Assembly: GCA_040223615.1 (NCBI GenBank)
Contig: JAVKFY010000036.1
Coordinates: 11,596-75,595 of the forward strand
DNA length: 64,000 bases
Reading direction: 5' to 3'
Source of the DNA: Alphaproteobacteria bacterium
GTDB taxonomy: Bacteria > Pseudomonadota > Alphaproteobacteria > GCA-2731375
A program made the position numbers and the translations under genes. The notes under the pieces were generated by a model. It was not told the origin of the DNA, made no database searches, and saw nothing but the letters and a program-made list of their open reading frames with translations. Below are positions 8,444 to 49,182 of the stretch, in pieces. The number at the start of each line of letters is the position of its first letter. The first letter of the stretch is position 1.

Positions 8444-9757
8444 TCAGCCGTTGGCGTCCTGGAACTTGCGCAGCAGGTCGTTGCCGCGCTTCACCGCGTC
8501 GTCGAGGCCCTCCTTGGCGGTCTTGTCGCCCGCCCACACGGCCTCCAGCTCGTCGTTGATGACATCGCGGATCTGCACGAAGTTGCCGAAGCGCAGGCCG
8601 CGCGAGTTGGCGGTCGGCTGGTTCAGGCTGAGCTGCTTGATCGCCGTGTCGGTGCCCGGCGCCTTCTCGTAGAAGCCCTGCTTCTTGGACAGCTCGTAGG
8701 CCGCCGTGGTGATCGGCACGTAACCGGTCGCCTGATGCCAGTCGGCCTGGATCTCCGGTGACGACATGAAGTTGAAGAACTTCGCGACGCCCTCGTACTC
8801 TTCCTGCGGATGGCCGCGCAGCACCCACAGCGTAGCGCCGCCGATGATCGAGTTCTGCGCCTTGGCGGCGACGTCGGTGTTCACCGGCAGCATCGCCTGA
8901 CCGTAGTCGAACTTGGCGTTGCCTGCGATCGAACCGTAGTAGGCAGAGGAATTCATCCACATGCCGCATTCCTGGTTCATGAACTTCGGCAGGCTCTCGC
9001 CGCGCCGGCCGCCATAGTCGAACAGCTTCGACTTCTGCCAGTCGGCGATCTTCTGGATCATGCCGACGACATGGTCGTTGTTGAAGGTCAGCTCGGTGTC
9101 GAGACCGGCGAAGCCGTTCTCCTTGGTGCCGATCGGCAGGTTATGCCAGGAGGAGAAGTTCTCCACCATCACCCACGACTGCCAGCCGAAGGAGAAGCCG
9201 CAAGGCATGCCCGACGCCTGCAGCGCCTTGGCCGCGCTCTCCATCTCGGCCCAGGTCTGCGGCGGCTTGTTCGGGTCCAGGCCGGCTTTCTTGAAAGCGT
9301 CCTTGTTGTACCAGAGCACCGGCGTGGAGCTGTTGAACGGCAGCGAGAGCAGCTCGCCCTGCGGCGTGGTGTAGTAGCTGACCACCGCCGGGAGGTAGGC
9401 GTTGATGTCGAACGCCTGGCCGGTGTCCTTCATCAGCTCGTGCACCGGGTAGATCGCGCCCTTGGCCGACATCATGGTCGCGGTGCCGACCTCGAACACC
9501 TGCACGATGTGCGGCTGCTGCTTGGCGCGGAAGGCGGCGATCGCCGCCGTCATGGTCTCGGTGTAGTTGCCCTTGTTGACCGGGACGACCTTGAAGTCGG
9601 ACTGGCTGGCGTTGAACTTGGTGGCGATCTCGTCGACCTTCTCGCCGAGCTTGCCGGTCATGGCGTGCCACCACTGAATCTCGGTCGCCGCGTATGACGC
9701 GGTTGCGACCAGGGCCACGCCAGCGAATGCCGTCGAAGCCAGAATCTTTCTGAGCAT
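8444..9757 (-). CDS. ugpB: sn-glycerol-3-phosphate ABC transporter substrate-binding protein
   Basis: Signal peptide, EIQWWHAM, QVFEVGTATMM, PFNSSTP, NSIIGGATLW. Confidence 0.96.
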   Translation of the reverse strand: MLRKILASTAFAGVALVATASYAATEIQWWHAMTGKLGEKVDEIATKFNASQSDFKVVPVNKGNYTETMTAAIAAFRAKQQPHIVQVFEVGTATMMSAKGAIYPVHELMKDTGQAFDINAYLPAVVSYYTTPQGELLSLPFNSSTPVLWYNKDAFKKAGLDPNKPPQTWAEMESAAKALQASGMPCGFSFGWQSWVMVENFSSWHNLPIGTKENGFAGLDTELTFNNDHVVGMIQKIADWQKSKLFDYGGRRGESLPKFMNQECGMWMNSSAYYGSIAGNAKFDYGQAMLPVNTDVAAKAQNSIIGGATLWVLRGHPQEEYEGVAKFFNFMSSPEIQADWHQATGYVPITTAAYELSKKQGFYEKAPGTDTAIKQLSLNQPTANSRGLRFGNFVQIRDVINDELEAVWAGDKTAKEGLDDAVKRGNDLLRKFQDANG

Positions 9758-9839
9758 TGGACCTCCCTACGGGTTGACCGCCCAGTGTTGGGCAGCCGGG
9801 GCGAAGGCGCCCCTTATTGCAGGGTCAGTTTGCCCATTT

Positions 9840-18284: not shown

Positions 18285-19625
18285 TCATTGCTGGGTCAGG
18301 CGGAATTCGATGCGCCGGTTGCGGCGCAATTCGTCGCGCGTGTTGCCTTCCGCGATCGGGTGGAACTCGCCCAGGCCGGCGGCCATCAGGCGCTGTGGCG
18401 AAACGCCCTGCCGGACCAGAAAGCGCACCACCTCGGTCGCGCGCGCGGTCGACAGTTCCCAGTTCGAGGGGAACTGCTCGTTGCGGATCGGGCGGCTGTC
18501 GGTGTGGCCGTCGACCCGCAGGATCCAGTTGATATCGGTCGGAATCTCGCGCGCGATCTCCTGCAACGTATCGGAGAACCGTGTCATCTGGCGCCGGCCG
18601 GCCGGGCCGAGCCGCGCCTCGCCGCTGGCGAACAGCACCTCCGACTGGAACACGAAGCGGTCGCCGATTACGGCGATGTCGTCGCGGTCGCCCAGCGCCT
18701 CGCGCAGCCGGCCGAAGAACTCGGAGCGGTAGCGCGCCAACTCCAGGGTCTTCGCCGCCAGCGCCTTGTTGAGACGCTTTTCCAGCGCGAAGATCACGTC
18801 CTGCTGGTCCTTGCTGCGCGCTTCGGAGGCTTCAAGAACTTCATTCAATATCGCAAGTTGCTGCCGTAATTCGTTGAGTTGCCAATTCAATGTGTCGACC
18901 TTGGCCTGCGCGACATCGGCCAACGCGTCGCTCTCGCCGACCCGTGCCTGCAAGCCGTCGCGCTCGGCGGTCAATGCGTCGACCTCGGCCCGCGCGCCAT
19001 CCAGCTCGGCGCGCAGCTTGCGCATCTCCGCCAGGGTCACGCGCAGTTCGCGACCGGCCTCGGCACTTTCGCGACGCAGCGCCGCCAGATCCTCGCTGAA
19101 ACCCTCGCGCGCGTCGCGCTCGACCAGCAGCATCGCCGACAGGTTGGCGACCTGCTTCTCCAGTTCCTCCACGACCCGGTTGCGCTCGCTCTTGGCCGCC
19201 GCCAGTTCGGACGCGGCGGCCTGTTTCTCCTGCTCCAGCAGCGCGGTGAGGCGGGTGACCTCGGCCTGCAACTCGGCCAGTTCGCGACGCGAGCCGGCAA
19301 GGCTGTCGCGCAGTCCCTGCCCTTCCTTCTCCAGCGTATCGAGGTTGCTGCGCAGTTCCTTGGCGTCACCACGCAGCGCCTCGCTCTCTTGCTGGCGGTC
19401 ATCGAGGCGGTCGATCGCCTGGTCGACCTGGTTCTGCAGGAAGTCGAGCGCGGCGCCGCTGGCGCCGGCATCCTGGTTCAGCTTCGAGAGCCTGCCCTGG
19501 ATACGGTCGATCAGGCCCTGCAGATCGGCCGGCGGTGTCGCGGCTTCGTCGTCGGCCGCGCGCACCGGCCCCGCCGCCAGCAGCAGCGCCAGGATCAGCC
19601 CAAGGGTGGCCGCCGGTCGGCCCAA
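18285..19625 (-). CDS. Peptidoglycan-binding OmpA/MotB-domain protein with long coiled coil
   Basis: GDRFVFQSEVLF, LRVDGHTD, NWELSTARA, NRRIEF; TTG start 7 nt after GGAGGAGG, followed by a signal peptide. Confidence 0.85.
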   Translation of the reverse strand: MGRPAATLGLILALLLAAGPVRAADDEAATPPADLQGLIDRIQGRLSKLNQDAGASGAALDFLQNQVDQAIDRLDDRQQESEALRGDAKELRSNLDTLEKEGQGLRDSLAGSRRELAELQAEVTRLTALLEQEKQAAASELAAAKSERNRVVEELEKQVANLSAMLLVERDAREGFSEDLAALRRESAEAGRELRVTLAEMRKLRAELDGARAEVDALTAERDGLQARVGESDALADVAQAKVDTLNWQLNELRQQLAILNEVLEASEARSKDQQDVIFALEKRLNKALAAKTLELARYRSEFFGRLREALGDRDDIAVIGDRFVFQSEVLFASGEARLGPAGRRQMTRFSDTLQEIAREIPTDINWILRVDGHTDSRPIRNEQFPSNWELSTARATEVVRFLVRQGVSPQRLMAAGLGEFHPIAEGNTRDELRRNRRIEFRLTQQ

Positions 19626-21019
19626 GGCCGTGCCTCCTCCAACTGTGCCGCCAGGCGCAGCAGTATCGCCTCCGCACCATAGCGCGCCGCAAGGTGCGCG
19701 CCGACCGGCAAGCCGTCCGGCGTCCAGTAGAGCGGCACCGACATCGCCGGCTGGCCGGTGATGTTGCAGATCGCAGTGAAGGACGCAAACTTGGCGCCGC
19801 GGCGGGCGCCGGCCATTGGCTGGTCCTTGGTGCCGACCATCTCGCCCAGCAGCAATGGCGGCGCCGTGGTGGTCGGCGTCAGCCACAGATCGCGGTCGAC
19901 GAAGAAGCGGGAAACGTCGCGGGTCATGCGCTGGCAATCCTGTACCGCCAGCAGGTAATCGGCGGCGGAAATGTCCCGGCTGCGGCGATAGATCTCCCAG
20001 GTCAACGGCTCCAGGTTGTCCTCGCTCGGCGTGACGCCGTAGCGGCGGCGCCAGTCGGCGATGGCCCAGCCGAGGAAGCCGAACCAGAGCGTCGTGAAGC
20101 CCTTCTGCTGCACGGTGACGTCGAAGCTCGGCTGCGCCTCCTCGGCGTCATGGCCGAGATCAGCCAGCAGCGTCGCGGCGTCCTCCACGGCGGCCAGCGC
20201 CTGCGGGTCGAGCGTGGCACCGTCCGGGGCGGTACGGCTGAACCCGACGCGCAGGCGGCCGGGCGGCGCGCCGACTTCGTCCAGGAAGGCGCGCTCGGGT
20301 GCCGGCGCCTGATACGGGTCGCCGATGTCGGGGCCGGCCGTGGCGTCGAGCAGCGCGGCGGAATCGCGGACACTGCGGCTGACCACGTGCTCGATGGCGA
20401 TGCCGCCGCCGATATCGCCATAGTGCGGGCCCATCGGCATCCGGCCGCGCGACGGCTTCAGGCCGAACAGGCCGCAGCACGCGGCGGGAATGCGGATCGA
20501 GCCGCCGCCGTCGTTGGCGTGCGCCGCCGGGACGATGCCGGCCGCCACCGCCGCCGCCGAACCGCCGCTGGAGCCGCCCGGCGTGCGGCCCAGGTTCCAG
20601 GGGTTGCGGGTCGGGCCGAACAGCAACGGTTCGGTGGTTGGCACCAGGCCGAATTCCGGCGTGTTGGTCTTGCCGATGATGTTGAGGCCGGCGCGCTTGT
20701 AGCGGGCGGTGAGCTCGCTGTCCTCGGTCGCCGGCGGGCTGTCGGCGAGGAACCGGCTGCCCTCGGCCATTCGGGTGCCCTTCAGTTCGGCCATCAGGTC
20801 CTTCAGCAGAAATGGCACGCCGGCGAAGGGGGCGTCGCGGTCCCCCGTGGCGGCGCTGTCGCGGGCCTGCTCGTAGAGCGGCAGGATGATCGCGTTCAGC
20901 TTCGGGTTGAGCGCCTCGGCACGAGCGATCGCGGCCTCGACCGCCTCGGCCGGTCCGATCTCGCCATCACGGATCGCCGCCGCCTGCGCCAGCACGTCCA
21001 GTTCCCAGATTTCCGCCAT
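19595..21019 (-). CDS. Amidase (amidase signature family)
   Basis: [38 protein letters not shown]. Confidence 0.93.
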
Positions 21020-21214
21020 CGCGCCCTTCCGTCGCCGCCTGCATCAGACTCTGCGGCACGACGCGGCCCCTTGTCATCCGGCAGTGGAAGCGAACCTCGA
21101 CCCATAGTGCCCGAGATATGGACGCCTTGTGTCAATGCGGGACGAAATTCGCCGCTCGTGGCAGCGATGTGTCATGGCGTGACGGTTATCGGCCCGAATC
21201 CGCCGATAACCTGT

Positions 21215-21230
21215 TGGCACGAGGCTTGCG
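21215..21230 (+). promoter_or_regulatory. Sigma54 (RpoN) -24/-12 promoter
   Basis: TGGCACG-AGGC-TTGCG, near-perfect match to TGGCACG-N4-TTGCW with GG-N10-GC spacing; preceded by 10-bp inverted repeat GGTTATCGGC-N8-GCCGATAACC (21184-21211). Confidence 0.75.
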
Positions 21231-21240
21231 GTGTAACTCT

Positions 21241-21330
21241 CGAACTCATGAGGATAACGGACCTCCCCCTCGCGTAGAGTTCACCTCTCCGATCGCTGAG
21301 CTCCCCAGTCCCCCGGCTGGGGAGCTTCGC
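21241..21330 (+). ncRNA. Candidate trans-acting small RNA with anti-Shine-Dalgarno motifs
   Basis: Starts at the expected sigma54 TSS. Hairpin GAACUC/GAGUUC with loop AUAACGGACCUCCC, linker ACCUCUCC, then 13-bp hairpin 21298-21327. No credible + strand gene follows. Confidence 0.6.
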
Positions 21331-21354
21331 GTTGTGGCATCCGCGATTCGGCAA

Positions 21355-21383
21355 ACGAAAAAGCGCCGGCCAGAAGCCGGCGC
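21355..21383 (-). terminator. Rho-independent terminator of the small minus-strand gene
   Basis: Minus strand GCGCCGGC-TTCTG-GCCGGCGC followed by TTTTTCGTTT. Confidence 0.75.
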
Positions 21384-21435
21384 CTGGTGGAGACGCGAAT
21401 AGCGAGCCGATCAGCCCCGCCGGAGCGGGGAAATC

Positions 21436-21612
21436 CTAGTGCGCGGTGGCCGGATCGACGCGGGCGGTGTCGTCGTTCGCCGCCTGCGCGCTCAACCGCG
21501 CGATCTCGTCGGCCACGCCATACCAGCAATACTGCTTGGCGACGTGCACGGCGCGCTGGGCGCCAAGGGTCTCGATCAGGTTTCGCGCTAGGTCAAGCTG
21601 GGTCCGTCCCAT
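21436..21612 (-). CDS. Small hypothetical protein (58 aa)
   Basis: TAAGGAG RBS 6 nt before the ATG; MGRTQLDLARNLIETLGAQRAVHVAKQYCWYGVADEIARL...; has its own terminator. Confidence 0.7.
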   Translation of the reverse strand: MGRTQLDLARNLIETLGAQRAVHVAKQYCWYGVADEIARLSAQAANDDTARVDPATAH

Positions 21613-48421: not shown

Positions 48422-48928
48422 TTACGCAGCTTTGGTCTTGGTCGCGGTGTCGAAGGCAGCCGTCATCTGCTCATTGAGCGGCTCGACCGTGTCCTGCGCC
48501 AGCTTGGTGGCGATTTCACTGATCTTGGTGCCCTGGGCCATCGCCGAGTCGAGGCTCGACTTGGCGAAACCGGTCTGCAGGTCCATCAGCTCCTGCAGCG
48601 ACTTCACGGTCATCGCGGCGCGGGCCACGGCGGCACCCTCTTCCATCGACTGCTTGGAGAAAGCCATCAGCTCGGCCGACAGCATCTCGTAGCCCTTGGC
48701 GTAGGCGGTCCCGGACGCCATGAAGGCGGCCATGGTCTTCTGGCCGATCGCGGCCATCTCGTCATAATTCTTCATCATGTCCTGCATCCGATCCTGCGCC
48801 GTCTCGAAGGCCTTCTCGTAGCCATCGGCACCGGCTTTGACAAACTGTTCCATCGTGTCCTTACCTGCCGCGACGACGTTCTCGACTGCGGCTGTGGGCT
48901 GCTGCGCCCGCTTGGTCTTGGCGACCAT
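48422..48928 (-). CDS. phaP: Phasin (PHA granule protein)
   Basis: Helical Ala-rich protein with KSLQELMDLQTGFAK...LAQDTVEPL; GGAGGG RBS; usual position next to clpS. Confidence 0.88.
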   Translation of the reverse strand: MVAKTKRAQQPTAAVENVVAAGKDTMEQFVKAGADGYEKAFETAQDRMQDMMKNYDEMAAIGQKTMAAFMASGTAYAKGYEMLSAELMAFSKQSMEEGAAVARAAMTVKSLQELMDLQTGFAKSSLDSAMAQGTKISEIATKLAQDTVEPLNEQMTAAFDTATKTKAA

Positions 48929-48995
48929 GTGTTCACCCTCCGAATTTCGCTGCGCCGCTATCAGGTCGCGGCGCCGAACCTGCTCTGTCGTCTTA

Positions 48996-49070
48996 TGCTG
49001 CATCGCAACATGAACCGTATATTGCGCTGCGCTGCGGCGAAGTCAAGAAGGATTTTGCTGCAATGCACAA
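48996..49070 (-). promoter_or_regulatory. Phasin sigma70 promoter overlapped by PhaR-type TGC-N3-GCA operators
   Basis: TGCATCGCAACA (48999), TGCGCTGCGCTGC (49023), TGCAATGCACAA (49059); minus-strand -35 TTGACT at 49041-49046 with CAATAT -10. Confidence 0.65.
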
Positions 49071-49182
49071 TTTCTTCGTCGATCAGCGCCGCGGCACCTC
49101 GCGGCAGGCAAGCGACATCGGCCCCGGCGGCAAGTTCCGGCGACAGCCATGCCACTTGCGCGGGCTTTCCGCGAAGCCTGGA

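Follow-up and report, generated by a model that had tools for sequence, protein, structure and literature searches.

A candidate sigma-54-type small RNA with anti-Shine–Dalgarno elements and its plausible pairing with a phasin mRNA in an alphaproteobacterium

Gene context, promoter and predicted fold

The window, i.e. the whole 64,000-nucleotide stretch of alphaproteobacterial DNA that was analysed, contains an intergenic gap bordered on one side by an amidase gene (19595-21019, minus strand) and on the other side by a 58-codon open reading frame (21436-21612, minus strand), which is convergent to a candidate promoter within the gap. The 58-codon reading frame has a good Shine–Dalgarno (SD) sequence (AAGGAG) and its own canonical terminator, is followed by tgt and queA, belongs to no Pfam or NCBIfam family and, as searched, is absent from the genome of a member of the same genus. 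A hairpin at 21361-21385 is a terminator for the minus strand only. Two short reading frames at the locus were considered and rejected: the first, of nine codons on the plus strand, lacks an SD sequence, and the second, of 25 codons on the minus strand, has a GC3 of about 60%, compared with 80–93% in the real genes of the window. A repeat or mobile element was likewise rejected, since the candidate region is single-copy and its sequence unique in the genome.

The candidate promoter, TGGCACGAGGCTTGCG, lies at 21215-21230 on the plus strand with GG at -24 and GC at -12, and the predicted transcription start is at about 21241. It retains this GG/GC pair within TGGCAC-N5-TTGC and is an exact match to the extended consensus TGGCACG-N4-TTGC. 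Throughout the genome there are 43 TGGCAY-N5-TTGC sites, of which 33 are located outside our crude gene set, with most of those preceding a gene, so that the motif appears to be meaningful in this genome; about ten of the 43 lie inside genes, and a few chance sites are therefore to be expected. The genome encodes one rpoN (one Sigma54_DBD gene) and seven strong activator genes (Sigma54_activat), which, together with the near-consensus site, is consistent with the RpoN-type promoter that the first-pass annotation had proposed here. The promoter is an orphan, the next gene start on the same strand being 3443 nt away. A perfect inverted repeat, TTATCGGC-N8-GCCGATAA (21187-21210), adjoins the -24 box on its upstream side, spans -31 to -54 and is the sole mismatch-free copy among 13 matches in the genome with at most two mismatches; it is a possible binding site for a regulator. 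The proposed link of the promoter to nitrogen was not supported: a nitrogen-regulator site was looked for and none was found, no 9-mer is common, at a consistent position, to this promoter and the other 42 sigma-54 sites, and no activator site could be assigned; seven activators are candidates.

Another orphan sigma-54-type promoter was observed on contig C64 (82731 onward, plus strand), 200 nt from the contig end, where it is followed by a C-rich stretch (..CGCUCCCUGCG..CUGCUCCCCUGCGGCUCCCUCGG) that is cut by the contig end.

The predicted transcript, referred to below as the candidate sRNA, would extend from 21241 to 21336 on the plus strand (approximately 90–96 nt), with both ends taken from prediction. 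The segment 21238-21340 folds with an energy of -43.3 kcal/mol (z = -3.5), and none of 200 shuffled sequences was equally stable. The approximately 100 nt downstream of the promoter comprise three parts: stem-loop 1 (21242-21282, plus strand) with an exposed C-rich loop, AUAACGGACCUCCC, which holds the 9-mer GGACCTCCC at 21259-21267; a short free linker, ACCUCUC; and a strong, GC-rich 3' hairpin of 13 bp (21299-21328, plus strand), which is followed by CUUCGCGUUGUGG. The loop 9-mer is predicted to be accessible, with about 1.0 kcal/mol required to open it. Because the tail of the 3' hairpin, CUUCGCGUUGUGG, carries no U-tract, no plus-strand terminator was called, and a scan for intrinsic terminators on the plus strand at the locus found none; the real terminators of the genome do carry U-tracts. 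A search with the 4227 models of Rfam 15 at gathering score gave no match in the whole window, and the best sub-threshold match at the locus (E 0.14) is to an unrelated lncRNA model. The promoter and the fold make a small RNA starting near 21241 plausible, its transcription and its ends being predictions.

The missing U-tract after 21299-21328 also fits a transcript that arises from a real promoter and acts in cis, either by antisense read-through into the 58-codon reading frame (21436-21612), tgt or queA, or as an RNA ended by Rho. The next hairpin (21361-21385) would stop transcription of the minus strand only, and the C-rich, G-poor composition may resemble that of Rho-loading sites. However, trimming back to a 3' hairpin of such high stability can leave a discrete, protected RNA, and the antisense role is pure conjecture; we consider a cis-acting transcript to be distinctly unlikely.

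Complementarity to the phasin ribosome-binding site

The plus-strand segment 21279-21298 (GTTCACCTCTCCGATCGCTG) and the plus-strand segment 48931-48952 (GTTCACC-CTCCGA-ATT-TCGCTG) share 7+6+6 identical bases, the extra bases being one T in the former copy and ATT in the latter. The second copy corresponds to positions -3 to -24 of the mRNA of phaP (48422-48928, minus strand; Phasin_2, PF09361, 83 bits), which is the single Phasin_2 gene detected in the genome and whose start at 48928 (ATG, 48928-48926) agrees with the phasin N-termini of 25 relatives. The proposed target site (48931-48952, minus strand) includes the GGAGGG SD sequence, and the 19-bp complementarity (7+6+6, two bulges) over this ribosome-binding site is exactly as the first-pass annotation had described it. 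The accompanying statement that most of the phasin pairing lies outside the SD sequence was not borne out, since UCACCUC in the sRNA is what we take to be the canonical 16S anti-SD core, so that extended-SD pairing accounts for about nine of the 13 pairs in the core. The whole assembly yielded no SSU rRNA gene (RF00177, 0 matches), and the anti-SD comparison therefore rests on the canonical motif; a missing SSU rRNA gene is common in metagenome-assembled genomes.

In the predicted fold, only ACCUCUC (21283-21289) is unpaired within the phaP-complementary stretch (21279-21298, plus strand), the remaining bases being taken up by stem-loop 1 (in its 3' arm) and by the 3' hairpin (at its base), and opening of 21279-21298 would require 5.4–13.1 kcal/mol, varying with the assumed transcript ends. 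The exposed part at 21283-21289, with about 7 nt the longest fully exposed run, is interrupted by the bulged U, and the 7-bp and 6-bp helices with phaP extend into the predicted stems of the sRNA.

Further upstream of phaP, positions 48996-49075 of the window contain three TGC..GCA-type boxes, e.g. TTTTGCTGCAATGCACAATTT, which resemble the PhaR (AniA) sites that PMC12542648 describes for S. meliloti phasin promoters; PhaR probably controls phaP, as it does elsewhere.

For comparison with the background of the genome, start regions were taken from a crude GC3-based gene set of 4263 genes, in which some starts are wrong and from which some genes are missing, and were ranked in four ways, the totals being 4037 examined start regions, or 4249 or 4256, depending on the measure. 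Full-length duplexfold was replaced by windowed hybrids with opening energies and by cofolding, because it returned meaningless 90-nt duplexes in this genome of 68% GC. By raw hybrid energy (best 22-nt window in sRNA nt 1-60), phaP reaches -32.3 kcal/mol and ranks 7th of 4037, and none of 400 dinucleotide shuffles attains this value (mean -20.4, s.d. 2.7). By the RNAcofold energy difference, in which both own structures are counted, it reaches -16.7 and ranks 13th of 4249, where the 1% quantile over start regions is -13.2 and the median is -3.8. When the windowed hybrid is combined with the opening energies of both RNAs, it reaches -12.6 and ranks 15th of 4256, with the 13-bp core only. Thus, phaP ranks better than background and is a top-0.4% predicted target by the two structure-aware methods. 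Its rank is method-dependent, as is shown by a partial measure (hybrid and sRNA opening energy only), since superseded by the full calculation, in which it ranked 423rd of 4256. A first rank of 4256 obtained with the fixed segment 21279-21298 was discounted, as this segment was defined by the match itself.

The controls bear on how specific this pairing would be. When nt 1-58 of the sRNA were shuffled, cofolding with the phaP start region gave a mean of -13.5 (s.d. 2.7), against -16.7 for the real sequence, and 29 of 250 composition-matched shuffled RNAs equalled or surpassed the real sRNA in binding to this start region. For six random start regions the shuffle means were only -2.7 to -10.3, compared with -13.5 for phaP. 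Shuffled RNAs bind phaP nearly as well because its start region is generically open, and its high rank owes much to this open, purine-rich region with a strong extended SD sequence, with which any C-rich RNA can easily score as a false positive. Since stem-loop 1 is lost on shuffling, the control somewhat favours the shuffled RNAs. Over 20 combinations of assumed transcript ends, the net binding of phaP ranged from -15.7 to -20.6, the shorter ends giving the values up to -20.6. In the ranking with both opening energies, ranks 2–32 span -15.0 to -11.5 kcal/mol, a range of only 3.5 kcal/mol, and rank 15 is therefore not robust. As phaP was picked from the 51 genes of the window, a rank of 7 or better would be expected about 9% of the time and a rank of 15 or better about 16% of the time. 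The complementarity of phaP is beyond chance as raw complementarity; the sRNA/phaP energies are largely reproduced by the controls, and the case rests on one genome. We regard phaP as a plausible target, neither demonstrated nor clearly specific.

Other predicted targets and conservation

The loop 9-mer GGACCTCCC occurs both at 21259-21267 and at 9759-9767, where it is complementary to the SD region (GGGAGGUCC on the mRNA; minus strand) of ugpB, with the ATG starting 1 nt after it. The gene (8444-9757, minus strand) encodes an sn-glycerol-3-phosphate ABC transporter binding protein by the NCBIfam equivalog model NF008211 (574 bits against a cut-off of 411). The first-pass annotation had proposed ugpB as a second target; the exact 9-mer and the identity of the gene as UgpB stand, whereas the match itself is at chance level, with 21 of 400 shuffles giving as good a raw hybrid (rank 133 of 4037). 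The complement of the 9-mer, GGGAGGTCC, is present in five of 4256 start regions. By the accessibility method ugpB ranks 30th, and by cofolding, which cannot model loop-to-mRNA contacts, 912th of 4249. What ugpB shows is ordinary complementarity to an SD sequence.

The top predicted target of the accessibility ranking is a DegT-family aminotransferase gene (C5:19110-20219), with a total of -23.5 kcal/mol compared with -15.0 kcal/mol at rank 2. The operon of this aminotransferase gene also comprises another DegT-family gene and split transketolase genes. At C5:19085-19116, over its SD sequence and AUG, about 24 bases would pair with sRNA nt 4-31 (the loop and the 5' arm), and the loop exposes 13 bases complementary to this gene, compared with nine for ugpB. 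The length of the 13-nt exact core was reached or beaten by 179 of 1000 shuffles, and the DegT-family target is therefore likewise not established. The 20 best predicted targets include three solute-binding proteins, a TRAP permease and alanine dehydrogenase.

By BLAST, no homologue of the candidate sRNA was found in any of the 32 other genomes of the order or in 40 relatives, and a single-sequence covariance model gave no match at E <= 1 in the 32 genomes. The same BLAST search recovered, as a positive control, a pair of sigma-54 sRNAs from contig C52 in six of the 32. A promoter-plus-seed pattern gave one match in genomes of the family, which is unrelated; none of 29 relatives has a sigma-54 site at its tgt locus; a pattern scan of public genome contigs gave no homologue among the matches listed, and none of the 25 matches in public metagenome contigs is homologous. 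The phaP target site is absent from the phaP 5' UTRs of 25 relatives. The best-matching DNA data set, which comes from the same organism, covers the candidate locus at low depth and shows no differences there. In the same-genus genome (71% complete), the amidase gene is kept with 84% identity next to a different neighbour, and synteny breaks right after it.

This lack of conservation wherever the sRNA was searched for, together with the same-genus synteny break and the missing U-tract terminator, would also be expected if the locus held no functional RNA, but a chance or decaying sigma-54-like site, such as those counted inside genes, with GC-rich hairpins in a fast-evolving spacer. The phaP match would then be coincidental, which the chance expectation for rank 15 among the window genes would allow. 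Coincidence accounts less well for a promoter that equals the extended consensus, for the perfect palindrome beside it, of which the genome has no second copy, for a downstream fold far more stable than shuffled sequences and for a raw phaP hybrid exceeding all 400 shuffles. We regard the absence of any functional RNA as unlikely, albeit a serious competitor.

Among public contigs from unrelated bacteria, the loci L039, L156/L164 and L173 have TGGCAC-N5-TTGC followed within 50 nt by a hairpin exposing GGACCUCC; L039 and L173 continue with a GC-rich hairpin that resembles a terminator, and of the two only L039 has a U-tract. As these loci were chosen by the search pattern itself, they carry no statistical weight. 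Sigma-54-driven anti-SD sRNAs may be widespread.

Relation to known small RNAs and possible meaning

The reading that we prefer, with a probability of roughly 45%, is that the locus encodes a lineage-specific short RNA which is driven by sigma-54 and carries anti-SD elements, and for which phaP is a plausible but neither a specific nor a proven target. The orphan sigma-54 promoter would give rise to a short transcript with two C-rich anti-SD elements, the exposed loop AACGGACCUCCCC and the linker ACCUCUC; the sRNA would pair across ribosome-binding sites and block the initiation of translation, as other alphaproteobacterial anti-SD sRNAs do, and the pairing with phaP would consist of a 13-bp core with a 1-nt bulge and six additional base pairs.

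Among the anti-SD sRNAs of alphaproteobacteria, AbcR1/2, which are named in PMC7143759, repress the binding proteins of ABC transporters. The candidate sRNA resembles them in having C-rich exposed motifs predicted to pair with ribosome-binding sites and in the solute-binding proteins among its top 20 predicted targets, and differs from them in matching no Rfam family. The RpoN-dependent sRNAs NrsZ (Pseudomonas aeruginosa) and GlnZ (enterobacteria) are described as having sigma-54 promoters and acting by base pairing in trans (PMC9731577). These are gammaproteobacterial RNAs with NtrC as the activator, whereas the candidate is a predicted sRNA of an alphaproteobacterium and has no sequence or structural relation to them.

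A comparable arrangement was observed elsewhere in the same genome, at C52:106414-106789 (minus strand; locus L242 890 to 515), where two tandem RNA genes of about 130 nt each have a TGGCAC-N5-TTGC promoter, a U-tract terminator and a common block, GCUUUCCCUCUUU..CCGUAAUGCCCUCAA. The pair has 78% identity in the same-genus genome and a 54-nt core in two other genera, its best Rfam match is sub-threshold (BjrC1505, 23 bits against a cut-off of 50), and it appears to be a genuine sigma-54-dependent sRNA family that has escaped annotation. As in the candidate sRNA, a sigma-54 promoter precedes a transcript with C-rich motifs, and such a design is thus in use in this genome; however, the C52 RNAs have U-tract terminators and are conserved, whereas the candidate sRNA has neither property.

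One precedent cited in the first-pass annotation is MmgR (alpha-r8; RF00519, suhB family) of S. meliloti, for which lowered phasin protein and PHB content and a nitrogen response via NtrC are described (PMC8401924, PMC7143759, PMC12542648). According to PMC8401924, MmgR is NtrC-induced and AniA-repressed and lowers PhaP1/PhaP2 'in a direct or indirect manner', and a 2020 review states that there is 'no direct mRNA target ... described to date' (PMC7143759). In Sphingopyxis, a suhB mutant is reported to accumulate a phasin that was not predicted as a direct target (bioRxiv 10.64898/2025.12.09.693200). Like the candidate sRNA, MmgR carries an anti-SD motif in a loop; it has -35/-10 boxes with a dyad, whereas the candidate locus has a -24/-12 promoter. 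RF00519 gave no match at its gathering score (41 bits) at the locus, the whole window being covered, and its only alignment nearby (13.4 bits, E 7.3) is on the opposite strand at 21347-21410. The genome has an MmgR/suhB RNA of its own at C51:102315-102391 (minus strand), which scores 49.6 bits, above the gathering score, and has the motif UUUCCUCCC as well as a terminator with a U-tract; within the phaP SD sequence, its CCUCCC motif matches the GGAGG core and nothing beyond. Weaker RF00519 look-alikes were seen on C79 and C11 (31.7 and 31.4 bits), below the cut-off.

The first-pass annotation had interpreted the locus as a dedicated, RpoN- and nitrogen-controlled sRNA that represses phaP, and ugpB, directly as a functional analogue of MmgR linking nitrogen to PHA granules. 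This interpretation is partly supported, in that the complementarity to the phaP ribosome-binding site is confirmed, phaP being the sole phasin gene. The 19 bp over its SD sequence, the three high ranks of phaP, a raw hybrid better than 400 of 400 shuffles and the precedent of an NtrC-induced RNA that lowers PhaP1/PhaP2 (PMC8401924, PMC7143759) all agree with it. However, no nitrogen-regulator site and no motif common to the other sigma-54 promoters was found, seven activators are candidates, and the genome has an Rfam-grade MmgR/suhB RNA of its own. The pairing stretch is mostly buried in helices of the sRNA, the start region of phaP readily binds shuffled RNAs too, ugpB does no better than chance, and neither the sRNA (32 genomes) nor the phaP site (25 relatives) is conserved. 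Furthermore, even for MmgR, the review cited above does not record direct pairing with phasin mRNAs as established (PMC7143759). Such a nitrogen-to-phasin circuit therefore seems very unlikely.

The lineage-specific sigma-54 RNA preferred here would have a wider meaning if its 19-bp pairing across the SD sequence of the single phasin mRNA took place in the cell, where it would provide a second riboregulatory input to the PHA granule beside MmgR, set by an enhancer-binding protein. We consider this outcome highly improbable, and the sRNA/phaP pairing is at present a single-genome prediction; a sigma-54-driven sRNA acting on a phasin was searched for in the literature and none was found. If true, it would provide a direct, mutationally testable pairing between an sRNA and a phasin mRNA, which even MmgR lacked as of the 2020 review (PMC7143759), and would exemplify sigma-54-driven riboregulation in an alphaproteobacterium.
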